A DNA stretch of 64,000 bases from Candidatus Bathyarchaeia archaeon (GTDB lineage Archaea; Thermoproteota; Bathyarchaeia; Bathyarchaeales; Bathycorpusculaceae): assembly GCA_050012755.1 (NCBI GenBank), contig JBEKGO010000003.1, positions 1-64,000 on the forward strand. The letters run 5' to 3'. Below are positions 3,105 to 50,591 of the stretch, piece after piece. Made by a program: the position numbers and the translations under genes. Under the pieces are notes generated by a model. The model was not told the origin of the DNA and searched no databases. It saw only the letters and a program-made list of their open reading frames with translations. Positions within the stretch are counted from its first letter, which is position 1, and every line of letters starts with the position of its first letter.

Positions 3105-4336
3105 TAGAGCTGATCGATCTCCTTTAGAACTTCAATGAAGCGGTCAATTTCTTCTTTTGTGTTGTAAATGTAGAAGCTTGCTCGGTCAGACGATTGCAGT
3201 TTGAGCACTTGCTGATGCAGCGGCTGGGCACAATGGTAGCCGCTTCGAATCATTATTCCGTAGTTGTCGCAGATTAGCGCAACATCATGAGAAGATAAAC
3301 CTTTAACGCTGAAGGGTATGATGCCGCATTTTTTAGAAAGGTCACTGGAGCCGTAAACTGTTACTTTGCTGCATTCTTGTATACGTTCAACAGCGTACTT
3401 AGTTAAATCTTTCTCGTGGTTCAGTACTTGATTCATGCCTATTGCTTCAAGATACTTAACAGCTTCACCTAAGGCAATTGCTCCGCAAATGTCAGGTGTT
3501 CCTGCTTCAAACTTCCAGGGCAAATCATTCCACGTTATGCTGCAGCCAGCTCCGGGAGTGAAAGCAACTTCTTTTATCATTTCTCCTCCGCCTTGGAACG
3601 GCTGCATCTTTTGAAGAACATCCTTTTTGCCGTAAAGCACACCAATGCCTGTTGGCCCAAGCATTTTATGACCTGAAAAAGCAAGAAAATCTGCATCTAA
3701 ATCTTGAGCATCAACCGACATATGGGGCACAGACTGCGCTCCATCAACAAGCATTAAAGCGCCATTATCATGTGCAGCCTTGGTGATTCGTTTAACATCA
3801 TTAATTACGCCCGTGACATTTGAGACATGGCTTAAGCAGGCGATTTTTGTTTTGTTGGAAAATTGTTTTTCAAAATCTTCGTAGTCTAGTGTGCCGTCAG
3901 CGTTCACTTTGGCATATTTAACTGTGAAACCCTTTATTTTAGAGGTGATTTCCCAAGGTACAATGTTGCTATGATGCTCCATCAGTGACACAAGAACCTC
4001 GTCACCCTTGCACAAGTTGTTTAAACCCCAAGAATATGCTACCAGATTGATGGCTTCTGTAGTGCCCCTGACAAAAACCACTTCTTGCCAATCTTTTGCG
4101 TTGATGAATTTTGCAATCTTTATGCGTGAGTTCTCATAAAGGTCAGTTGCTTCCAATGATAGAGTATGGATTGCTCTGTGGACGTTGGCGTTATTGTTTT
4201 CATAAAAATTGGTGATAGCGTCAATTACTTGTTGAGGCTTTTGGGTGGTTGCGGCGTTGTCAAAGTAAATTAGGGGATTGTCGTTTACTTTACGTTTTAA
4301 TATTGGAAAATCTTTGCGAAGCGCTTGAATATCCAC
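3104..4336 (-). CDS. sufS: cysteine desulfurase, SufS family
   Basis: YFDNAATTQKP, MEHHSNIVPW, FSGHKMLGPTG and RSGYHCAQP motifs. Confidence 0.95.
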   Translation of the reverse strand: MDIQALRKDFPILKRKVNDNPLIYFDNAATTQKPQQVIDAITNFYENNNANVHRAIHTLSLEATDLYENSRIKIAKFINAKDWQEVVFVRGTTEAINLVAYSWGLNNLCKGDEVLVSLMEHHSNIVPWEITSKIKGFTVKYAKVNADGTLDYEDFEKQFSNKTKIACLSHVSNVTGVINDVKRITKAAHDNGALMLVDGAQSVPHMSVDAQDLDADFLAFSGHKMLGPTGIGVLYGKKDVLQKMQPFQGGGEMIKEVAFTPGAGCSITWNDLPWKFEAGTPDICGAIALGEAVKYLEAIGMNQVLNHEKDLTKYAVERIQECSKVTVYGSSDLSKKCGIIPFSVKGLSSHDVALICDNYGIMIRSGYHCAQPLHQQVLKLQSSDRASFYIYNTKEEIDRFIEVLKEIDQL

Positions 4337-4338
4337 GA

Positions 4339-4857
4339 TTACTTCTCTGCCTTTTTGTCTGCCTCTACCTTCATCCTCTTAGACAGGGTCTTTGCCAGCT
4401 CTTCTTCTTCTAACGCTTGCTTTTCTTCAAAAGTGTGTTCTGCCGGCATCCAACTGGGTGCTGCTGCACCTTTTTCTTTGAAGTATTGTCTTATTGCTCG
4501 TTTCAGTGCTCCTACAGCTAGGACTCCGCAATGAAATTTGACGCTTGGCAAACCCCCGATTTCATCTGTCACCCGTTTCCAAGTTATGTCTTTCCATGCT
4601 TGCTCAAGGCTTAAGCCCTTAATCATTTCAGTAACTATACTGGATGTGGCAATGTTGGCAGCGCAACCATAACTTTCGAAACTTGCCTTCTCAATAATGT
4701 CTTTATCACTTATTTTTAAGTAGAATGTTATCATGTCTCCGCAAGCTGGGTTTCCAGCAACTGCTACGACTGAGGCATCGTCCATTTTTCCCAGGTTCTT
4801 GGGGTTTCTAAACAAATCCATGACTTTTGGGTTGTACGGTAAAGGTATACGTGACAT
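4339..4857 (-). CDS. iscU: Fe-S cluster scaffold, IscU/NifU-N family
   Basis: GNPACGD, GCAANIA and KFHC motifs. ATG at 4857 is preferred over the longer ORF start. Confidence 0.9.
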   Translation of the reverse strand: MSRIPLPYNPKVMDLFRNPKNLGKMDDASVVAVAGNPACGDMITFYLKISDKDIIEKASFESYGCAANIATSSIVTEMIKGLSLEQAWKDITWKRVTDEIGGLPSVKFHCGVLAVGALKRAIRQYFKEKGAAAPSWMPAEHTFEEKQALEEEELAKTLSKRMKVEADKKAEK

Positions 4858-4858
4858 A

Positions 4859-6082
4859 TTAATGAACTCCTGTTGAGCCAACTATCCCTCTTATACGGTT
4901 AACAGCTATTGGTAAGACTTTGAGAACGTAAGCTATATCCTCTTCTGTCAAGTAACGCGTCGTCTTCATGAGAATACTACCATGTGCCTCCTCAAATATG
5001 CGTCCAATGGCAATAAGAACATGGCTTGGCTGGAGTAGCCTTCGGCTGCATGCGCTTCCGCTGGAAATGTAGACTCCATTAAGGCTTAACTCGATGGTTA
5101 ATGCTTCCCCTTCAGCCCGCAGAATGCTGACGTTTGCGTTGTCTGGAGAGCGTTTGTCACCTTTTGGACCGTTAAAACGCAAGCCATCAAGCTCAGCAAA
5201 TATTCCGTCAACAAGTTTATCGCGCAGCATTCGCATTTTTGTGGTGTTGGCTTCGAAATTTTGAAAGGCAAGCTCAGATGCTTTTGTAAAACCAACAATT
5301 AAGGGTGTGTTTTCGACTCCTGGCCAAAGCTTCTGTGTTCCAATTTGGCCTTCAAGGATGCGTTCCATGTTTATGCCGTCTCGCATGTACATGGCTCCCA
5401 TGCCGCGTGGACCTTGAATTTTGTAGCTGCTGATTGTGGCTAAGTCAACATTTAGGCTTTGAACGTTGAATGGGATCCTGCCATAAGCGTCTGAAGCATC
5501 TGTGTGAAAAAGTGTTTGAGGGTTTTTGGCTTTAACAATATCCACCGCTTCTTTAATTGGCTGTACTGTGCCAATCTCGTTGTTTACGGCTGAAACGCTC
5601 ACAAGTACGGTTTCGTTGTCGACGACTTCTTTGAGTTTTTCAAGATTGATGAACCCTTCTTTGTTTACTGGGATCTTGGTGGTTGAGAAGCCGAATTTCT
5701 GCATCATTTCAGCAACTTGCAAGACGTTGATTGGTTCGATTTCTGATATGATGATTTTTTTGCCTCTGCTTTTTTGGGCAAAGCATGTGCCCATTATGGC
5801 TAAGTTGTTGGCTTCTGTTTCGCCTGGAGTGAAAGTTATTTCTTCGAGGATTTTTGCGCCAATGGTCCTGCTGATTTTTTGGAAGCAATTCATTATGACT
5901 TCGAAAGCTTCCCAGCCTGGCTTGTGGGTAAGTGTCGGGTTTCCGTAGGCTTTCTTATTAAAATATGGAAGCATTTCGTCAACTACTTCTTGTGGGACAA
6001 TGCTGGAGTTTTCGTTATCTAAGTAAACTTCGTGTGTTATGCCTTCATGAAGTTTGAGAAGTTCTTTTACGTTTTCAACCAT
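4859..6082 (-). CDS. IscS/NifS-like cysteine desulfurase (divergent)
   Basis: YGNP, VNNEIGTVQP, SSYKIQGP and SSGSACS motifs; several PLP-site residues are substituted. Confidence 0.8.
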   Translation of the reverse strand: MVENVKELLKLHEGITHEVYLDNENSSIVPQEVVDEMLPYFNKKAYGNPTLTHKPGWEAFEVIMNCFQKISRTIGAKILEEITFTPGETEANNLAIMGTCFAQKSRGKKIIISEIEPINVLQVAEMMQKFGFSTTKIPVNKEGFINLEKLKEVVDNETVLVSVSAVNNEIGTVQPIKEAVDIVKAKNPQTLFHTDASDAYGRIPFNVQSLNVDLATISSYKIQGPRGMGAMYMRDGINMERILEGQIGTQKLWPGVENTPLIVGFTKASELAFQNFEANTTKMRMLRDKLVDGIFAELDGLRFNGPKGDKRSPDNANVSILRAEGEALTIELSLNGVYISSGSACSRRLLQPSHVLIAIGRIFEEAHGSILMKTTRYLTEEDIAYVLKVLPIAVNRIRGIVGSTGVH

Positions 6083-36072: not shown

Positions 36073-37551
36073 TTGGGCGAAAGTGAAAGCAGAGCTGTTC
36101 CTGAGAGAGTTCCTTTGGAAAAAGTTAATGATTACATGTGGCGTATTCCCAATTACAAGCCTGCAATGCGTGTTCCAGGAATGGTTTTTGCTAATGAAAT
36201 GCTTCTGGATAAAATGAAGACTGATCGTACTCTTTGGCAATGCTCAAATGTGGCACAGTTGCCTGGAATTTACAAGTATGCTGTAACATTGCCAGATGGA
36301 CATGAAGGATATGGCTTTCCCATTGGCGGTGTGGCAGCAACAGACTATGACAACGGCGTAATCAGCCCGGGTGGAGTAGGCTATGACATTAATTGTGGTG
36401 TTCGCTTGCTAGCCACCACGCTCACAGAACAAGAGATCAGACCTAAACTTGCACCTTTAGCCGATGCCATTTTCCGTAATGTTCCTTCTGGGCTTGGAAG
36501 TCGACGAAAAGATCTCTCAATTTCCTCTTCTGACTTGGACCATTTAGCGGTTGAGGGAGTACCGTGGCTAGTCAAACGCGGGTTCGGATGGCCAGAGGAC
36601 GCAGAACACTGCGAAGAAAAAGGTGCCATGCCCAATGCAAACCCAGAAAAAGTTTCATCAACAGCTAAAAGCAGAGGAATAACCCAGATTGGCACATTAG
36701 GTTCAGGAAACCACTTCTTGGAAATACAAAAAGTGGACAAAATTTATAATCCCAAAACAGCCAAGGCTTTTGGAATCACGCAGGAAGGCCAAGTAACCGT
36801 AATGATCCATTGCGGTTCGCGAGGCTATGGTCACCAAGTCTGTTCTGACTACTTAAGAGTCATGGAGCACGCAGTAATAAAATACAAAATAACTCTTCCC
36901 GACCGCGAATTAGCTTGTGCCCCTGGTAATAGCAATGAAGCCCGTGATTATTTCCAAGCTATGGCTTGCGCTGTTAACTACGCATTTTGTAATCGCCATG
37001 CAATTATGCATTGGGTTAGACAAAGCTTTCAACAAGTCTTCCAGCAGCCACCTGAAAACTTTGGTTTAAAACTTGTTTATGACGTAACCCATAACATTGC
37101 CAAAGTAGAAACCCACAGGATAGATGGAAGAGAAAAGAAGGTTTGGGTTCACCGCAAAGGAGCAACACGCGCTTTCCCGCCTGGTCACTCAGATATTCCA
37201 GCAGATTACCGTAGCGAAGGACAACCTGTGCTAATTCCTGGCAGCATGGGTACTAGTTCATGGGTTCTAGCAGGTGCCGAAAAGGCTATGGACTTGACTT
37301 TTGGTTCGACCGCGCATGGAGCAGGCAGAATGATGAGCCGTTCTGCGGCTAAACGGCAATATTGGGGCGGAGAAATAAAAGCGTCTTTAGAGAAGAGAGG
37401 CATTGTTGTTCGTGCAGCCAGTGCTTCGGTTTTGGCTGAAGAAGCTGACCCAGCTTACAAAAACGTGGACGTTGTAGCGGACGTTAGTGATAAGGTTGGG
37501 ATTGCCACTAAGGTTGCCAGGCTTGTTCCATTAGCCGTTGTAAAAGGATAA
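36073..37551 (+). CDS. rtcB: tRNA-splicing ligase RtcB
   Basis: PDGHEGYGFPIG, DINCG, GSGNHF, HRKGAT and STAHGAGR. Confidence 0.97.
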   Translation: MGESESRAVPERVPLEKVNDYMWRIPNYKPAMRVPGMVFANEMLLDKMKTDRTLWQCSNVAQLPGIYKYAVTLPDGHEGYGFPIGGVAATDYDNGVISPGGVGYDINCGVRLLATTLTEQEIRPKLAPLADAIFRNVPSGLGSRRKDLSISSSDLDHLAVEGVPWLVKRGFGWPEDAEHCEEKGAMPNANPEKVSSTAKSRGITQIGTLGSGNHFLEIQKVDKIYNPKTAKAFGITQEGQVTVMIHCGSRGYGHQVCSDYLRVMEHAVIKYKITLPDRELACAPGNSNEARDYFQAMACAVNYAFCNRHAIMHWVRQSFQQVFQQPPENFGLKLVYDVTHNIAKVETHRIDGREKKVWVHRKGATRAFPPGHSDIPADYRSEGQPVLIPGSMGTSSWVLAGAEKAMDLTFGSTAHGAGRMMSRSAAKRQYWGGEIKASLEKRGIVVRAASASVLAEEADPAYKNVDVVADVSDKVGIATKVARLVPLAVVKG

Positions 37552-41855: not shown

Positions 41856-42137
41856 TTATTTTTGTTTGATTATGCCATAACTCTGCTTTTTCCAAGCATC
41901 CCTAAACTTATTGTAGTAATCAATCGGCTGGAAAACAGGTGCATACGTTAACTGCCACTCAAGACCACACTTGCAGACAGCATAAACTTCTTTTTTATGC
42001 ACATTCGCCAAAATCTGCAACAGTTCTTTCCTGCATTTTGGACAGTAATATGGTCCATTAACCATTTGCTTTGCATCTTTGGTTAAAATTTTAATTCTAC
42101 TGCCAGGAACTCTATGCGCGTCTTTACCCAAACCCAT
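41856..42137 (-). CDS. Elf1-like zinc-ribbon protein
   Basis: YYCPKC...CKCGL...PIDYYNKFRD. Confidence 0.6.
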   Translation of the reverse strand: MGLGKDAHRVPGSRIKILTKDAKQMVNGPYYCPKCRKELLQILANVHKKEVYAVCKCGLEWQLTYAPVFQPIDYYNKFRDAWKKQSYGIIKQK

Positions 42138-42728: not shown

Positions 42729-42807
42729 GCGGTTGTCGTCTAGTCTGGTTTAGGACTTTAGCCTTCCAAGCTAATGATCCCGGGTTCAAATCCCGGCGAC
42801 CGCACCA
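42729..42807 (+). tRNA. tRNA-Gly(TCC) with encoded CCA
   Basis: GCGGTTG/CGACCGC acceptor stem, TTAGC-CTTCCAA-GCTAA anticodon arm, GGTTCAAATCC T-arm and ACCA end. Confidence 0.96.
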
Positions 42808-43048: not shown

Positions 43049-43331
43049 CTTAAGAATCTTGTTTGCATTGCCATATTTAACCTATTGATTTATGTTTAAA
43101 GTGAGACTTCAGTTTTTCGCAACAATCTGCCTGTTCTATGAAAAATTGGGTAAATCAAGTATAATATAGTAATTGGTCACCTTGTTTTCTATAGGACAGC
43201 AGTCGCTGCAAATTCAAAGCGAGGGTGTGATTTGAAACTTGGAAGCGACAAAGATGTCACCTGCAAAACTCTTTTTTTTCTCCTGAACATTTGGGTAATT
43301 GGTTGAAGAGGATAAAATTAACATGATAACG

Positions 43332-43403
43332 ATTGAAGAACGGTTTAGTTGTATTTTCCATTCTTTTCTCCTTTAGTCAGTTCCATTGCCTCAGCAAACC
43401 CAT
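43332..43403 (+). repeat. partial (3' arm) copy of the BHB-ended repeat unit
   Basis: TTTTCTCCTTTAGTCAGTTCCATTGCCT-CAGC-AAA-CCCAT matches the 3' arms at 48.0, 48.7 and 48.8 kb; no 5' arm is recognisable. Confidence 0.7.
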
Positions 43404-45096: not shown

Positions 45097-47850
45097 TTGG
45101 TAGTCGAACTGACTTACAGCGATGTTTTAAAAACAATTTTCGTTGATGTTGAGGGCACAGAAAAAATGGAGAAAAAATACGTGAAAATAATAAAAAATAA
45201 AATAATAACTATTGCGATTGCTATTTTCTTGATGCTTTCGATGTCAGCTTCAATGATGCTAGTACCAACTGCTACTGCGCATACACCAGCTTGGCAAATC
45301 CCCACATATGCCTACATTAATGTTGCACCTAACCCAATTGGTGTCGGTCAGCCAGCTTCCGTGTATCTGTTTCTTACAAACTATTACTACGGTGCACAAT
45401 ATGGAAACGACCTCAAATTCCACAACTACAAGCTTACCATTACAGCGCCTAATGGAGCGGTAACAACGCAGAATTTTGCTACAGTCGTAGACTCAACATC
45501 AGATCAACATACTTCATTTATTCCTGATCAAGTCGGCACGTACAATTTGACCTTCACTTATCCAGGAGAAACCTACACATCAACCGAGCTAATATCAGGA
45601 AGTGTATTTGTTCCTCCAGGACCTAACGATTACACAAACGATACTTTTCTACCCAGCAGTGCATCAACAACTCTTACAGTTCAGCAAACAGCAATACCTG
45701 CGGCCATAGCCAGCTACCCGCTTCCAACCGCTTACTGGACACGACCAATCTACGGTGAAAACTCCTACTGGTACACGATTACATCAAACTGGCTAGGTAC
45801 GGGCGCACCAGGCTACGGTGGCTGGTCCAATTTGGGCTACGATGCCATGGGATTCGGAGGCGGTCAGGCGATGTTTCCAGGAGACGCCGTAGGATCTCAA
45901 ACTAGCCATGTGATGTGGACTAAGTCGCTGCAATCCGGTGGAGTTGTAGGAGGAAACGATGTTGGTACTGCACAGACTTACTTCGACGGATCTGCATACC
46001 TGATTAGATTCGACAATCCGATAATACTTGCTGGAATGCTCTACTACACAGAACCATTAAGCTTCTCGGGAAGTGATTCTGGACCTACTGACTGCGTTAA
46101 CCTACAAACAGGACAACTTATTTGGTCTCGCACTGATGTACCAACGCTAACAATGGGACTTGTCTTTGACGTCCAAACCCAAAACGAGCACGGAGTTACT
46201 CCACCAATCTTAGTAGCAGCTAGCGGTTCGACTTGGATGGGCTATGATGGAGACACAGGAAACTGGCTGTTCAACATGACTAACGTTCCTGCTTTAGGTG
46301 CTGGAAAGGTAATGGGGCCAAGCGGTGAATACTTAAACTATGTCATGGCAAACGCGGGCACTGACTCGAAGCCAGATTGGCGTTTAGGTGAGTGGAACTC
46401 TACTAAAGTGTTTATGCCAGACGGTTCAGCTGCACCAACACTGACTGGTACATTGGATGGAAGCGTTTCGACTGGGTCGAACACCTGTTATGACTGGAAC
46501 GTTTCGATACCATGGTTAAACACTATGACGTCGACACCTACTGTTGTGAGCGCTAACTATAATGATGGGATACTTTGCTACAATGGTACTCTGCCTTCAA
46601 ACGGTGAAAACATGCTTTTCTCTGCAGTAAGCACAACTCCCTACACTTACTTCTTTGTCAACCTCAATGCTTCTCGTGGTGCAATCGGTTCGGTATCGTG
46701 GTGGAATACACTTCAGCCGCCAGCAAACAACTACACTGTCGTTCAAGCCGGAGTTGATTGGAACACTCGCATCTTCCTTCAATCATATAAGGAAGCTACA
46801 CAATGGGTCGGATTCAGCCTAGATTCAGGTAAGCAAATATGGATAGCCCAACCGCAAACGGCTTTTGATTACTATGGCAGTCCAAGCGCAGGCATTTTAT
46901 CCGGTCAGATTGCTTATGGTAGGCTTTACAGTTGTGCAATGGGAGGAATACTCTACTGTTATGACGATACTACTGGAAAGCTATTGTGGACTTATGGTAA
47001 TGGCGGTGAAGGCAACAGCACTAACTCTGGCTTTAACTGGCCTTACGGCAATATCCCAACGTTTGTGAATGCTATTGGCAACGGAATAGTATACTTGATT
47101 ACCAGTGAGCATACTTGGGTGTCGCCACTTTACAAAGGCGGATTGGCGCGTGCTGTTAACGCAACTGACGGAACAGAAATCTGGACTATTTCATCGGCTA
47201 CTATTGAGTTCGGTTCGACAAGCTATGCTATGGCTGATGGCTATAATACATGGTTTAATAGTTATTCCAACCAAATTTACACTGTAGGCAGAGGACCTAG
47301 CGCTACTACCGTTTCAGCACCAAACACCGCTGTAGAATCTGGATCGCCAGTAGTGATACGAGGTACAGTCACCGACATTTCTGCTGGCACAAAGCAAGAC
47401 CAGCAAGCAGCTGATTTTCCGAATGGTGTTCCAGTTGCATCTGATGCTAGCATGAGTTCTTGGATGGGCTATGTTTATCAACAGAAACCGCTTCCAACCA
47501 ACTTTACTGGTGTTCCTGTAACGATAAGCGTCGTTGACTCTAACAACAATTTCAGAACCATTGGCACTGCAACAACTGACGCAACCGGCATGTATACCTT
47601 AACATGGACTCCGGACATATCTGGCAACTTCACTGTTTACGCTAACTTCGCTGGCACTAACGGTTACTGGCCATCATATGCAGAAACCTCTTTTGTCGCA
47701 AATTCAGCACATGCAACAACTGCTCCAACTGCAACTGCTGCTGCATCTGTCGCTGATACATACTTTGTTCCCGCAATCGCCGGACTATTTGTTCTAATCA
47801 TTATAGTCCTCGCTCTAGTAGCTCTGCAAATGTTTAGGAAGCGACCGTAA
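45097..47850 (+). CDS. large secreted/membrane-anchored PQQ-like beta-propeller surface protein
   Basis: Signal peptide, APNPIGVGQ motif, propeller repeats (TGKLLWTY, DGTEIW) and a C-terminal TM. The true start is probably about 45166-45181. Confidence 0.85.
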   Translation: MVVELTYSDVLKTIFVDVEGTEKMEKKYVKIIKNKIITIAIAIFLMLSMSASMMLVPTATAHTPAWQIPTYAYINVAPNPIGVGQPASVYLFLTNYYYGAQYGNDLKFHNYKLTITAPNGAVTTQNFATVVDSTSDQHTSFIPDQVGTYNLTFTYPGETYTSTELISGSVFVPPGPNDYTNDTFLPSSASTTLTVQQTAIPAAIASYPLPTAYWTRPIYGENSYWYTITSNWLGTGAPGYGGWSNLGYDAMGFGGGQAMFPGDAVGSQTSHVMWTKSLQSGGVVGGNDVGTAQTYFDGSAYLIRFDNPIILAGMLYYTEPLSFSGSDSGPTDCVNLQTGQLIWSRTDVPTLTMGLVFDVQTQNEHGVTPPILVAASGSTWMGYDGDTGNWLFNMTNVPALGAGKVMGPSGEYLNYVMANAGTDSKPDWRLGEWNSTKVFMPDGSAAPTLTGTLDGSVSTGSNTCYDWNVSIPWLNTMTSTPTVVSANYNDGILCYNGTLPSNGENMLFSAVSTTPYTYFFVNLNASRGAIGSVSWWNTLQPPANNYTVVQAGVDWNTRIFLQSYKEATQWVGFSLDSGKQIWIAQPQTAFDYYGSPSAGILSGQIAYGRLYSCAMGGILYCYDDTTGKLLWTYGNGGEGNSTNSGFNWPYGNIPTFVNAIGNGIVYLITSEHTWVSPLYKGGLARAVNATDGTEIWTISSATIEFGSTSYAMADGYNTWFNSYSNQIYTVGRGPSATTVSAPNTAVESGSPVVIRGTVTDISAGTKQDQQAADFPNGVPVASDASMSSWMGYVYQQKPLPTNFTGVPVTISVVDSNNNFRTIGTATTDATGMYTLTWTPDISGNFTVYANFAGTNGYWPSYAETSFVANSAHATTAPTATAAASVADTYFVPAIAGLFVLIIIVLALVALQMFRKRP

Positions 47851-47888
47851 AAATGCGAAACAAAAAATTCCTTTTCCCTTTTTTTTAG

Positions 47889-47896
47889 TTTAAAAA
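47889..47896 (+). promoter_or_regulatory. TATA-box-like element of repeat unit 1
   Basis: TTTAAAAA begins 25 nt before the GGGG of the unit; identical spacing at 48708. Confidence 0.55.
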
Positions 47897-47911
47897 TTAT
47901 TTGTGAATGAT

Positions 47912-48024
47912 ATGGGGCTGAGTGGGCTCTGGTTGAATCTTGATTTCCTTAGGTTTGTTGTGATAACGCATTTTCATTTGCGTTTTTCTTCCTTTGTTCT
48001 GTTCCAGAACCTCAGCAAACCCAT
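47912..48024 (+). ncRNA. candidate small RNA with terminal bulge-helix-bulge motif, unit 1
   Basis: ATGGG-GCTG-AGT-GGGCTCTGG ... CCAGAACCT-CAGC-AAA-CCCAT. Confidence 0.55.
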
Positions 48025-48066
48025 TCCAAAGGAATAGAAAAAAGTGTTGCGGGATGATAAGAAACG

Positions 48067-48468
48067 ATGCTGATTGAGAACGAAAAAAAGGAATATGTTA
48101 AACAAGCCAACAATCGCGGGCGAACTAGACAATCAGAGGTCATTACGAAAACAATAGATAACTCGAATGAGAAACACCGAAACTGTCAACGTGAATGGAT
48201 TAGAAAGCATCCAGATTACATGAAAGAATGGAAGAGTAGGAATAAGGAGAAACAGAGGCATTATAGGGAAACTTGGAATAAGAAGCACCCGAACTACTAC
48301 CGTGAATGGATTAAGAAGCACCCAAATTACATGAGAGATTGCTTGAAAGAACGGAAGGGTAATGCGAAGGGGTTAAACGCTGGAGTCACTCTAAAAACTG
48401 AAGTTGTCGATTTGACTGCGATTTCTGAGTCAGACAAAAGTATTGCGGCGAAAATATTGAAACAATGA
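48067..48468 (+). CDS. basic hypothetical protein with W-x-x-K-H-P-x-Y repeats
   Basis: REWIRKHPDY, ETWNKKHPNY and REWIKKHPNY. Confidence 0.65.
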   Translation: MLIENEKKEYVKQANNRGRTRQSEVITKTIDNSNEKHRNCQREWIRKHPDYMKEWKSRNKEKQRHYRETWNKKHPNYYREWIKKHPNYMRDCLKERKGNAKGLNAGVTLKTEVVDLTAISESDKSIAAKILKQ

Positions 48469-48600
48469 GAAGGAAATTTGTCGGCAAACAAATTGGATTG
48501 TAGAACAGTCTAACTGGTGCAAAGGAAGCGACCGTAAAAATGCCAAAACAAATTTTCATTTCCCTTCTTTTGGATACTGAAAGAATGTGTGAAAAAGAAT

Positions 48601-48707
48601 GGGGATTGAGTAGGCTTTGGATAATATTCACATAGTTGCAGTTGAGAATGGTTTAATCATTTCTCATTCTTTTCTCCTTAGTCTGTTCCAGAGCTCCAGC
48701 AAACCCC
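48601..48707 (+). ncRNA. candidate BHB-ended small RNA, unit 2 (degenerate)
   Basis: GGGG-ATTG-AGT-AGGCTTTGGA ... TCCAGAGCTC-CAGC-AAA-CCCC. Confidence 0.45.
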
Positions 48708-48732
48708 TTTAAAAATTATTGCTGGATGATAT

Positions 48733-48814
48733 GGGGCTGAATAGGCTCTAGTTTGAATCTCTCTTATCCTTAATTTTTTTTCTTCCTTAGTTTGTCCAGA
48801 GCCTCAGCAAACCC
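48733..48814 (+). ncRNA. candidate BHB-ended small RNA, unit 3
   Basis: GGG-GCTG-AAT-AGGCTCT ... AGAGCCT-CAGC-AAA-CCC (canonical BHB geometry); TTTAAAAA at 48708. Confidence 0.55.
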
Positions 48815-49035
48815 TTCGCAATAAATAGAAAAAAATGTAATAGTTAGGAAGAAAGATGCTGACTGAGATAGAGTTATCTTCTAAGAGAGGCAACCAAGTG
48901 GATATATGACGCAAGAAGCGCAGTGCGATTGCTAGGCAACATAAAAATGGTTCTTCCGGTTTGTCTGCATTAATTGGAAGCGAAAAGGTGAAAAGCCACC
49001 GCGTATAATAATCCAAAACGACGAGGACTCTGACA

Positions 49036-49236
49036 ATGAGTGATCAACCAAATATAGCAACTATCCAGTTAAACGGCGATAAACAAAACTTCATTATTGA
49101 AAAGAAAGATTTCAAAACAGGCAGCAGAGGATACTATGGGACAGGCAAGATGGTGGCCGCGGGCAAAAAGTACCAGATAAGCATACAAGTTGTGGAAATC
49201 GGCTCAAAGCCCAAAGAAGAAAAGAAAGAAAAGTAA
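49036..49236 (+). CDS. small hypothetical protein
   Basis: 66-aa ATG ORF with GAGG upstream; FKTGSRGYYGTGK...IGSKP motif. Confidence 0.7.
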   Translation: MSDQPNIATIQLNGDKQNFIIEKKDFKTGSRGYYGTGKMVAAGKKYQISIQVVEIGSKPKEEKKEK

Positions 49237-49265
49237 TCAACCATTTCTTAAATTCTTATTTTTGT

Positions 49266-49748
49266 TTAAGGCACAATTGATACACTAATTATTGTAACAT
49301 TTCTAAGCGGTTTGTCTTTTGAGTTCGTCCTTACTTTAGCGATTGCATCGACCACTTCCATTCCAGAGATGACTTTGCCGAAAGCTGGGTGTTTGCTGTC
49401 TAAGAAATTATTGTCTGCTTGATTGATGAAAAATTGGCTGCTTCCGGTGTTTGGACCTGCGTTTGCCATTGATATTGTGCCTCTGTCGTTGCGATTGGTT
49501 CTAGTAAATTCGTTTTTAATGTCGGGTATTGATGGGTCACCATACCCGGTACCTGTGGGGTCGCCACCTTGAATCATAAAGCCAGATATTACCCTGTGGA
49601 AGATTGTGCCGTTAAAGGTTCCCTTCTGGACTAAATTCTTAAAGTTGCCTGTGGTTATTGGCATGTCGTTACGTAGTTGGATAGTTATGTCACCCATGTT
49701 GGTTTGGAGCAAAATTTTTACTCCGTTGGTATATTCGTTTGAAGCCAT
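49266..49748 (-). CDS. cyclophilin-type peptidyl-prolyl isomerase
   Basis: FHRVISGFMIQGGD and SMANAGPNTGSSQFFIN. Confidence 0.95.
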   Translation of the reverse strand: MASNEYTNGVKILLQTNMGDITIQLRNDMPITTGNFKNLVQKGTFNGTIFHRVISGFMIQGGDPTGTGYGDPSIPDIKNEFTRTNRNDRGTISMANAGPNTGSSQFFINQADNNFLDSKHPAFGKVISGMEVVDAIAKVRTNSKDKPLRNVTIISVSIVP

Positions 49749-49877: not shown

Positions 49878-50591
49878 TTAAGTCACGATTGATGCTTTTA
49901 TGATTGTGACTGGATTTACTGGTTGACTATTTTCTCCCGTAGCACTCGTAGTAACTGGCGCATTAGCTATTGCATCAACAACGCTTTGACCTGAGATTAC
50001 TGTTCCAAATACTGTGTAGGTGCCATCAAAGGTCGAGCCGTCGGAGTAGGTTATTCCGCTGTTGTCTGCTACATTTATGAAGAATTCGCTTGTTGCCGAG
50101 TTAGGACTGCTGGTTTTTGCCATTGCTATTGTGTACTTTGTATTGTGGTTGTTTGTGCCTATCTCGTCTTTTATAGTCGGGGTGTTTTCAGTTATGCTTC
50201 CGCCTTGAATCATGAAGCCAGCTATGACACGATGGAATGTTGTGCCGTTGTACCATCCTTTTTGAACGATGTTTATGAAATTGGCGGTTGTTATGGGTTT
50301 GTCCGTCCGAAGTTGAATTGTTATATCGCCTGCACTTGTTTGCAATAGAACTTTTGTTCCTGTGACGGTTGTTGGAGTTGCTGTAGAGGTTGCCGTTGGA
50401 GTTGTGGTTGGAGTTGCAGATGGAGTTGAAGCAGTTGGGGATGAAGTTGGATTAGTTGACTGACTTGCGGTTTGACTGCCTGGCGCTCGTATTACAGCAT
50501 ATGCACCTATAACAATTATAACCAAAACTATTATGCCAATTACATAAGACTGTATATTGGACTTTTTCTTAGGCGTTTTTTTGTTTGCCAT
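49878..50591 (-). CDS. membrane-anchored cyclophilin
   Basis: N-terminal TM, Thr/Ser linker and FHRVIAGFMIQGG. Confidence 0.92.
   Translation of the reverse strand: MANKKTPKKKSNIQSYVIGIIVLVIIVIGAYAVIRAPGSQTASQSTNPTSSPTASTPSATPTTTPTATSTATPTTVTGTKVLLQTSAGDITIQLRTDKPITTANFINIVQKGWYNGTTFHRVIAGFMIQGGSITENTPTIKDEIGTNNHNTKYTIAMAKTSSPNSATSEFFINVADNSGITYSDGSTFDGTYTVFGTVISGQSVVDAIANAPVTTSATGENSQPVNPVTIIKASIVT

Follow-up and report, generated by a model that had tools for sequence, protein, structure and literature searches.

Bulge-helix-bulge-framed units behind surface-protein genes of Bathyarchaeia: a candidate family of antisense small RNAs

What are the short repeated units on the + strand of a 64,000-nt stretch of DNA from a Candidatus Bathyarchaeia archaeon (contig JBEKGO010000003.1, positions 1 to 64,000; hereafter the window), and why do their two ends pair into a bulge-helix-bulge (BHB), the form of substrate that the archaeal splicing endonuclease EndA cuts? 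The window lies on contig C3 of a genome of 2.41 Mb in 65 contigs, which is called the source genome here and carries the label G000 in coordinates. The original prediction, made from the window alone, described three units with BHB ends of 3-4-3 geometry (two 3-nt bulges around a 4-bp helix), two of them preceded by TTTAAAAA at 25 nt, and a reading of the sequence from 47400 to 49400 bore out these coordinates.

The units belong to a family that recurs in many Bathyarchaeia. Its members share a covarying + strand stem, a place directly behind one family of surface-protein genes and an interior complementary to the translation starts of these genes, and the source genome encodes enzymes of BHB processing. 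The explanation that we propose, with a probability of about 0.4, is that each unit gives a BHB-framed antisense small RNA, probably circularised, which masks the ribosome-binding sites (RBSs) of paralogous mRNAs.

A repeated unit closed by a covarying stem

Unit 1 (47914-48022, +) is the best-preserved copy in the window, with the 5' half of the BHB at 47914-47932 and the 3' half at 48004-48022. Read directly from the sequence, its outer helix consists of GGG (47914-16) and CCC (48020-22), its central helix of GCTG (47917-20) and CAGC (48013-16), and its bulges of AGT (47921-23) and AAA (48017-19), while the inner helix (47924-32 with 48004-12) contains one G.T and one C.A. EndA is predicted to cut behind 47922 and behind 48018, which would yield a circle of 96 nt (47923-48018). 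Unit 3 (48733-48814, +, together with its TTTAAAAA at 48708-48715) also has an intact BHB, with AAT and AAA bulges and seven perfect inner pairs, and a predicted circle of 69 nt (48742-48810); its interior is shortened, holds a run of eight thymines (T8) and lacks the anti-start codon found in other interiors. Unit 2 (48601-48707, +) is a decaying copy without the TATA-like box, in which the central helix reads ATTG/CAGC with one mismatch and one wobble, and the inner helix is mismatched as well. The circle sizes of 96, 92 and 69 nt for units 1, 2 and 3 correspond to cleavage after the second bulge base. The TATA-like box of unit 1 (TTTAAAAA) occupies 47889-96 and that of unit 3 occupies 48708-15, and both start 25 nt 5' of the first G of the unit. 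A fourth, decayed copy was detected by repeat finding at 43297-43403 (+), in which the interior and the 3' half are recognisable and the 5' half of the BHB is gone.

BHB geometry at one locus is not evidence, because the bare geometry is frequent by chance and single folds are uninformative. A scan for the geometry (3+4+7 pairs with 3-nt bulges) gave 827 matches in the genome compared with 454 and 502 in two shuffled genomes, and single-sequence folding of units 1, 2 and 3 on the + strand was unremarkable (z = -1.6, -1.6 and -0.03). What exceeds chance is the family, with conserved ends and covarying pairs in 128 distinct copies.

A covariance model (R1) was built from the seven full copies of the source genome. 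R1 and motif searches together gave eight matches in the source genome; window units 1, 2 and 3 score E 6e-21, 7e-17 and 1e-16, as training members that match by construction, and the decayed fourth copy scores E 4e-4. Among 60 relatives searched, R1 matches were found in 28 of the 36 genomes of the same genus, with up to 24 per genome, and in both genomes of a second genus from another family, with 15 copies each; the other 22 genomes of the order in this search had no match. Independent copies in other genomes reach E values down to 9e-17. In an even draw of 150 genomes of the class, matches occur in 6 of 15 genomes of one family (f1), 3 of 5 of another (f7) and 1 of 27 of a third (f24; a single weak match), and zero matches were found in roughly 28 other families searched. 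An exact degenerate pattern, run over one genome per prokaryotic species, found at least 119 stretches; among the matches listed, 76 of 80 are titled Bathyarchaeota, Bathyarchaeia, Bathyarchaeales or Bathyarchaeum, and the remaining four are short or possibly mis-binned contigs. Viral contigs scanned for the unit gave no match. Taken as putative RNA genes of roughly 100 bases, the family is so far seen almost only in Bathyarchaeia. Its copies number about 280 or more in total.

Base pairs were counted in 128 distinct copies, namely 135 rows without six duplicates and without window unit 2, whose 5' anchor is too degraded. The counts use fixed offsets from both ends and are alignment-free. All 16 pairs are standard in 66 copies. 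The central pairs are standard in 125-127 copies, the pair right after each bulge in 123, and the nine inner pairs in 110-124, with frequent double changes (the first inner pair is AU in 63 copies and GC in 49). The outer helix of 3 bp is paired in 102, 114 and 127 copies at its three positions, and its outermost pair covaries (GC 79, AU 10, GU 9, UA 4). The 3' bulge is AAA in 124 copies; the 5' bulge is AGA in 56, AGU in 47, AAA in 17 and AAU in 5 (125 together). The ends of the unit read GGGGCUGA... and ...CAGCAAACCC. Four of four central pairs, at least seven of nine inner pairs and at least two of three outer pairs are present together in 113 of the 128 copies.

The same stem is seen in 29 copies from other genomes, aligned by fitting them to the covariance model. 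In this set 97.8% of cells pair and double changes occur at 7 of the 16 pairs; none of 500 shuffles reaches any of the measures, slid registers fall to at most 57% pairing, and RNAalifold recovers the same stem from the alignment. The original prediction had proposed a covariance model and a search of this genome and related metagenome-assembled genomes, and this search brought both additional copies and compensatory changes. Its expectation that homologues keep the pairing and the 3-4-3 geometry was likewise confirmed by the covariation and by the 113 canonical copies.

The + strand is taken as the folding strand because G.U cells outnumber A.C cells (72 vs 37 in the 128 copies). Flank conservation, a T-run and A-rich sequence, exists on the 5' side only, and together with the G.U excess this promoter-like flank upholds the earlier assignment of the structure to the + strand. 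In the 3' flank no conserved terminator was found, and conserved sequence stops exactly at the outer helix. The flanks beyond the outer helix show no further pairing, the observed counts being equal to those expected. Conservation that ends at the outer helix, together with the absence of a conserved terminator, is as expected if cleavage defines both ends. The earlier idea of a transcript with almost no exon is consistent with these limits of conservation and pairing; with a transcription start at the first G, a 5' exon of about 9 nt would remain. The predicted circles have a median of 89 nt.

In tRNA BHBs the central helix is followed on its 3' side by a bulge on either strand, and the cut falls after the second bulge base. 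For comparison within the genus, the same scan was applied to the 16S flanks of two complete genomes (L166 G003 and L167 G013), which were used because the 16S rRNA is not assembled in the source genome. The scan recovered the pre-16S BHB, with halves 82-98 nt 5' and 34-37 nt 3' of the 16S gene; it has a CUCC/GGAG central helix and AAA and CAA bulges in the same arrangement as the units. Read on the minus strand, the units would show the mirror image of this arrangement. Thus the handedness proposed originally, with an EndA substrate on the + strand and bulges on the wrong side on the minus strand, agrees with the pre-16S BHB of the genus.

The genome contains two tRNA_int_endo genes (95 and 73 bits), and two proteins of the splicing-endonuclease family, encoded at G000:C31:17010-17243 and G000:C1:121471-121725, suggest a heteromeric enzyme. 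An RtcB gene (36238-37548, +; PF01139, 592 bits) is located 10 kb upstream of the units. Judged from sequence, the units appear to be BHBs with helices on both sides (hBHBh'): two 3-nt bulges around a 4-bp helix, the expected handedness, flanking helices, and the enzymes encoded in the genome. Outside the outer helix, where the exons of a BHB intron would lie, there is no conserved sequence or pairing. A back-splice junction probe over metagenome DNA contigs gave three matches, all of them unrelated hairpins. As a side observation, the tRNA-Trp gene at G000:C1:34084-34254 has an 80-nt intron predicted by ARAGORN, which contains GGGUUUGCUGA, the reverse complement of the 3' end of the unit; about one such 11-nt match is expected by chance in the genome.

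The closing stem could also serve without being cut. About 125 of the 128 copies have the same GCUG/CAGC helix and the same AAA bulge. The structure-specific EndA does not need these bases, as the native 16S BHB of the genus has CUCC/GGAG, so their invariance points to a second reader and EndA recognition alone is an insufficient explanation. A linear RNA, with the antisense role kept and the BHB-like stem closing the fold or binding a sequence-specific protein, would need no EndA processing and would suit an outer helix of just 3 bp and a geometry that often arises by chance. It accounts less well for the exact 3-4-3 spacing and handedness kept in the 113 copies, for conservation that stops at the outer helix with no conserved terminator downstream, as expected if cleavage defines the ends, and for the presence of EndA and RtcB genes. 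We consider a linear RNA possible but doubtful.

Rfam 15 was searched over the window, and tRNA-Gly alone reaches the gathering threshold; in a permissive scan of 47800-48900 the best sub-threshold matches have 20 bits against thresholds of at least 45. The CUGA at the 5' end was compared by eye with consensus sequences of the hammerhead, the K-turn and the C/D box, and all three readings were rejected.

A fixed place behind a surface-protein gene family

Unit 1 directly follows a gene (45166..47850, +; start ATG 45166 or GTG 45181) for a secreted protein of about 890-917 aa. Proteins of this family have a signal peptide, a PQQ_2 beta-propeller, an immunoglobulin (Ig)-like domain and a C-terminal membrane anchor. 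Pfam detects PQQ_2 (8e-10) in the window gene, and Big_3_5 at 1e-4, below its own cut-off; the ESM Atlas places the protein in Bathyarchaeota BamB/PQQ_2 clusters. Among the copies with at least 600 nt of upstream sequence, 104 of 111 lie directly 3' of a family gene on the same strand, with a median of 63 nt from stop codon to unit (the 128 rows of this linkage count were not de-duplicated). The linkage persists where the identity of the family proteins is only 25-35%, and gene-unit-gene-unit arrays are present in relatives. No family gene was found upstream of the remaining 7 of the 111 copies, nor of the copy on contig C6 of the source genome.

About 14 family paralogs exist in the source genome, of which four keep a full unit directly behind. 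The paralogs at G000:C5 about 79400 and G000:C62 about 3740 keep only the 5' stump of a unit (GGGAGCTGAGTAG... and AGGGCTGAGAA...), which indicates that units are being lost as well as kept. Upstream of unit 2, the stretch 48523..48571 (+) is 82% identical to 47836-47884 and corresponds to the last 15 nt of the gene plus spacer, with no gene attached, so unit 2 once followed another, now lost paralog. The original prediction of a tRNA-linked island was not borne out: the sole tRNA that ARAGORN and Rfam find in the window is tRNA-Gly at 42729-42807, 5 kb from the units, which are instead 3' companions of paralogous surface-protein genes.

The spacer between the family gene and unit 1 (47851..47913, +; 63 nt) is A-rich, followed by a pyrimidine stretch ending in T8 (47879-47886) and then by TTTAAAAA. 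From its position and composition, the T8 run is likely the terminator of the family gene. A run of at least five thymines (T5+) occurs upstream of 114 of the 128 units, and TWAAAW between -40 and -12 in 33 of them, with a peak at -25 to -23. In five well-preserved copies of the source genome, TTTAAAAA or TATAAAAAA starts 23-26 nt 5' of the first G. The TATA-like boxes of the units resemble the TATA boxes of the tRNA and family-gene promoters of the genome.

If the unit has no promoter of its own, its RNA would arise where transcription of the family gene reads through the T-run and lengthens the mRNA at its 3' end; this added part could act as cis feedback on the RBS of the same mRNA or be released from the 3' untranslated region (UTR) by BHB cleavage. 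The scarcity of TWAAAW and the fixed distance behind the stop codon are in line with such an origin, and the A-rich and TTTCCC...T-run region is part of the 3' end of the gene in each of the 14 paralogs examined, whether or not a unit follows. However, runs of T6 to T8 are strong archaeal terminators, the five well-preserved copies have a box at a promoter-like distance, and the seven copies and the C6 copy mentioned above have no family gene from which to be read. We judge read-through unlikely.

The arrays also bring in a DNA-level explanation, in which the unit is an inverted duplicate of the 5' end of a family gene, possibly a relic, or an attC-like folded single-strand recombination site that shuffles paralogs. 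Covariation cannot tell RNA from single-stranded DNA, and the reverse complement of the interior resembles the family 5' leader over up to about 35 nt. However, a stem that covaries and bulges that are kept across two families of genomes are under selection, the linked gene is of the same family in the 104 linked copies rather than one of diverse cassettes, and the two bulges are on different strands, like those of a BHB and unlike those of attC, which lie on one strand. Target-site duplications of at least 3 bp are present in 0 of 128 copies, and the one integrase found close to a copy is located at a tRNA-Arg gene. This explanation is very improbable.

Several mobile-element candidates were rejected on the same grounds. 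The original prediction had named insertion sequence (IS) or miniature inverted-repeat transposable element (MITE) ends as what the motif might turn out to be; identical flanks of at least 3 bp occur in none of the 128 copies, and 104 of 111 lie at the same place behind one gene family. An integron attC was rejected since the unit ends are unlike the attC core, the neighbour is the same family, and no integron integrase was found. The unit was also considered as an integration target, for a half-copy on contig C34 adjoins a tyrosine integrase, but the integrase sits at the tRNA-Arg gene. At this locus (L007; G000:C34:3533-3620, 3790-5384) the unit is truncated after the CU tract and lies beside tRNA-Arg(TCG), the tyrosine integrase and a D5-like primase gene; the integrated element sits at the tRNA gene, not at the unit.

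Downstream of unit 1, open reading frame (ORF) 133 (48067..48468, +) encodes a basic protein with three KKHP(D/N)Y..EW repeats, for which neither Pfam nor NCBIfam gave a match. Its only homologue in the genome has 190 aa and is encoded behind the C17 unit (G000:C17:12854-13426, -), and a truncated ORF133-like start follows unit 3 (48856-48909); the leader is conserved across all three sites. No ORF133 homologue was found in the loci of relatives. ORF133 may be co-transcribed with unit 1 in the source genome; it is outside the family-wide module. Further downstream, the genes at 49266-49748 (-) and 49878-50591 (-) are presumably neighbouring paralogs of the cyclophilin-type peptidyl-prolyl isomerase kind, as judged by eye from an FHRVI.GFMIQGGD motif, and the protein of the second has a signal or anchor segment and a Thr/Pro-rich linker. 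A small Elf1-like zinc-ribbon protein (PF05129, 4.6e-8) is encoded at 41856-42137 (-); Elf1-type transcription elongation factors are typical of TACK archaea.

An interior antisense to family translation starts

The original prediction had described conserved ends with different interiors. The description of the ends holds, but the interiors are not simply different, as their 3' part is antisense to the translation-initiation region (TIR) of the family genes. The reverse complement of this part reads WWAGGAGAAAAG...AAATGCAAA, which is the consensus of the family TIRs. Family paralogs share a strong promoter-like motif, in which GCAAAA precedes TTTTAAATA or TTATAAATA; it lies about 55 nt 5' of the start codon and implies mRNA leaders of about 30 nt with the purine-rich Shine-Dalgarno (SD) region. 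The family gene of the window has such a purine-rich SD region in its 5' leader, to which the units are antisense.

When 128 interiors were compared with 84 family 5' regions, the mean best local score was 33.5 for the reverse complement, 22.6 for the forward sequence and 23.5 for shuffled sequence, and the antisense alignments are densest from -19 to +5, a stretch covered by about 100 of the 128 units. The score of family initiation regions is 18.1, whereas 80 SD-led starts of other genes in the same loci, with crudely chosen start codons, reach 13.3 (Mann-Whitney p = 1e-17, which overstates the case because the sequences are related and not independent). In the second genus the SD region of the family differs (GAAGGAAUAAAAAAUG), and the units there carry a matching antisense tract; within-clade antisense scores exceed cross-clade scores in both directions (22.8 vs 19.0 and 18.1 vs 14.7, from only four units and five gene starts).

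The antisense segment of unit 1 (47964..48003, +) forms a hairpin with CAU in the loop, followed by a CU-rich tract. In RNAduplex, unit 1 and the C10 paralog mRNA form a duplex from -24 to +11 with -29.4 kcal/mol; for unit 1 and the mRNA of the C6 paralog the value is -27.2 kcal/mol, and the best antisense match of unit 2 is the C5 paralog (-25.7 kcal/mol). For the 84 unit-paralog duplexes of the source genome, the mean is -16.6 kcal/mol, compared with -11.8 kcal/mol in 420 controls with shuffled TIRs (best control -22.7). A pairing of the CU tract with a purine-rich stretch upstream of the unit was tried and rejected, as the stretch of the same copy gave -9.73 and that of another copy -9.67 kcal/mol; the longest exact complement to the tract is 6.2 nt in the upstream stretch and 5.5 nt in the downstream flank.

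The SD, spacer and ATG that appear on the reverse complement might also be taken at face value, as the start of a small protein encoded on the minus strand, given that many copies read WWAGGAGAAAAG...ATG. But 35 of the 128 units lack SD and ATG. In the other 93 the open frames are anywhere between 1 and 50 codons long, the frame in which the conserved stem would be translated differs between units (34, 34 and 24 units for the three frames), and that side shows no promoter-like conservation. The variable frame and length, together with the units without SD and ATG, thus refute a conserved minus-strand ORF, and we regard a minus-strand protein as almost certainly wrong. The claim that the units are non-coding is upheld.

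In the explanation that we propose, each unit would encode a structured RNA on the + strand, about 100 nt long, and would form one module with a surface-protein paralog. Transcription would start at or near the first G of the unit. A heteromeric EndA would cut both bulges of the closing stem (3 bp, the 4-bp GCUG/CAGC, 3-nt bulges and the 9-bp helix), and RtcB would join the cut ends into the circle. No terminator would be needed, since cleavage would set the two ends, and closure into a circle would protect the RNA from exonucleases. The hairpin of the interior 3' part and the CU-rich tract would then pair with the SD, spacer and start codon of family mRNAs, so that the circle, or the linear RNA, may block ribosome loading in trans across paralogs and repress their translation.

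Several observations weigh against this explanation. The TWAAAW box is present in 33 of 128 units, too few to establish independent transcription for the whole family. An interior T5+ run is present in 51 of the 128 units (T8 in unit 3), at which archaeal RNA polymerase could terminate without reaching the 3' half. The outer helix is merely 3 bp and does not extend into the flanks, and the central helix and AAA bulge are invariant though the native 16S BHB has other bases. On the antisense side, besides the overstated p-values, a unit pairs with its own upstream gene no better than with genes of other species (-15.0 vs -14.9 kcal/mol, 33 pairs). In a whole-interior ranking, six family starts are unexceptional among 991 SD-led starts of the genome, where the SD filter missed the GGAAG-type family starts that gave the best duplexes. 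Moreover, the aligned anti-start codon is fully unpaired in the minimum-free-energy fold in just 35 of 76 units.

In the source genome, the own gene is not the best target of the unit in three of three testable cases. This hints at a wider idea, in which EndA and RtcB serve as a maturation module for stand-alone regulatory RNAs and the circular antisense RNA of each expressed paralog silences the other paralogs, a form of mutual exclusion for cell-surface variation. We put it forward as a speculation that is probably not correct.

Relation to known systems

Few BHB substrates outside tRNA and rRNA are known: a haloarchaeal 5' UTR, the cbf5 mRNA and a permuted signal recognition particle (SRP) RNA. 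If the proposed explanation is true, the splicing endonuclease serves in archaea to produce small circular RNAs as a dedicated product, from a lineage-wide family with hundreds of copies. The complementarity to the RBSs of the neighbouring family gives specific testable targets, which is rare for archaeal small RNAs, and in the literature searched there is no such targeted small RNA for uncultured Bathyarchaeia. It would also suggest that a large and expanding family of secreted beta-propeller proteins is controlled post-transcriptionally in one of the most abundant archaeal groups of sediment and soil. A conserved intergenic element overlooked by gene callers would be explained, and the covariance model allows its annotation. 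Our search of the literature on Bathyarchaeota BHBs and non-coding RNA and on archaeal circular RNAs and small RNAs (sRNAs) found nothing describing the unit family; with no Rfam match either, the earlier statement that no such family had been described still stands.

The nearest structural relatives are the BHBs of archaeal tRNA introns and pre-rRNA, which share the hBHBh' form, a 4-bp helix with a 3-nt bulge on the 3' side of either strand, and the pre-16S BHB of the genus matches the units in this respect. In contrast to them, the units have no host RNA, are multi-copy (up to 24 per genome) and keep an invariant central helix. Unlike integron attC sites, the units have bulges on opposite strands and ends that differ from the attC core; like attC sites, they lie 3' of genes and have imperfect inverted repeats, conserved unpaired bases and a variable middle, with structure kept more than sequence. 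In bacteria, sRNAs derived from 3' UTRs likewise have their gene at the 3' end of a functionally related gene.

In the excerpt of PMC12558985 used here, the tRNA-Trp intron carries a C/D box sRNA and is thus a functional excised product, and archaeal circular RNAs include omega RNAs without a BHB. The units would resemble the tRNA-Trp intron in that the excised part would be the functional product (PMC12558985, excerpt). The consulted portion of PMC7714728 names only the HVO_1309 5' UTR and the cbf5 mRNA as hosts of BHB introns beyond tRNA and rRNA; the HVO_1309 intron of Haloferax volcanii gives a 46-nt circle and is cut in vitro by recombinant endonuclease. The units share with the HVO_1309 and crenarchaeal cbf5 introns a BHB outside tRNA and rRNA, and by analogy unit 1, upstream of ORF133, could behave as an HVO_1309-like leader intron. 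However, these introns are, as that portion describes them, single loci whose presumed product is the spliced mRNA, whereas in the units the excised piece is conserved, the members number hundreds and mostly no ORF lies downstream.

The permuted circular SRP RNA of Thermoproteus (PMC4731332, in the part consulted) is likewise a functional non-coding RNA that depends on BHB-type processing and circularisation. It is a housekeeping RNA of universal occurrence, encoded by one rearranged gene, whereas the units would be a lineage-specific antisense family. In function, the predicted RNA would come close to RBS-masking sRNAs such as Methanosarcina mazei sRNA162, whose pyrimidine-rich tract, in the excerpt of PMC3510493, is likewise the complement of the SD and start codon in its target. 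These sRNAs, as far as the excerpt describes them, have no BHB frame and no predicted circle, whereas the copies of the unit are each tied to a paralog of their own target family. The units therefore combine traits of the BHB intron and of the RBS-masking sRNA; they are not introns in a host RNA and belong to no Rfam family, and what is new here, as read from the genomes, is their linkage to the PQQ-propeller gene family and their apparent antisense interior.

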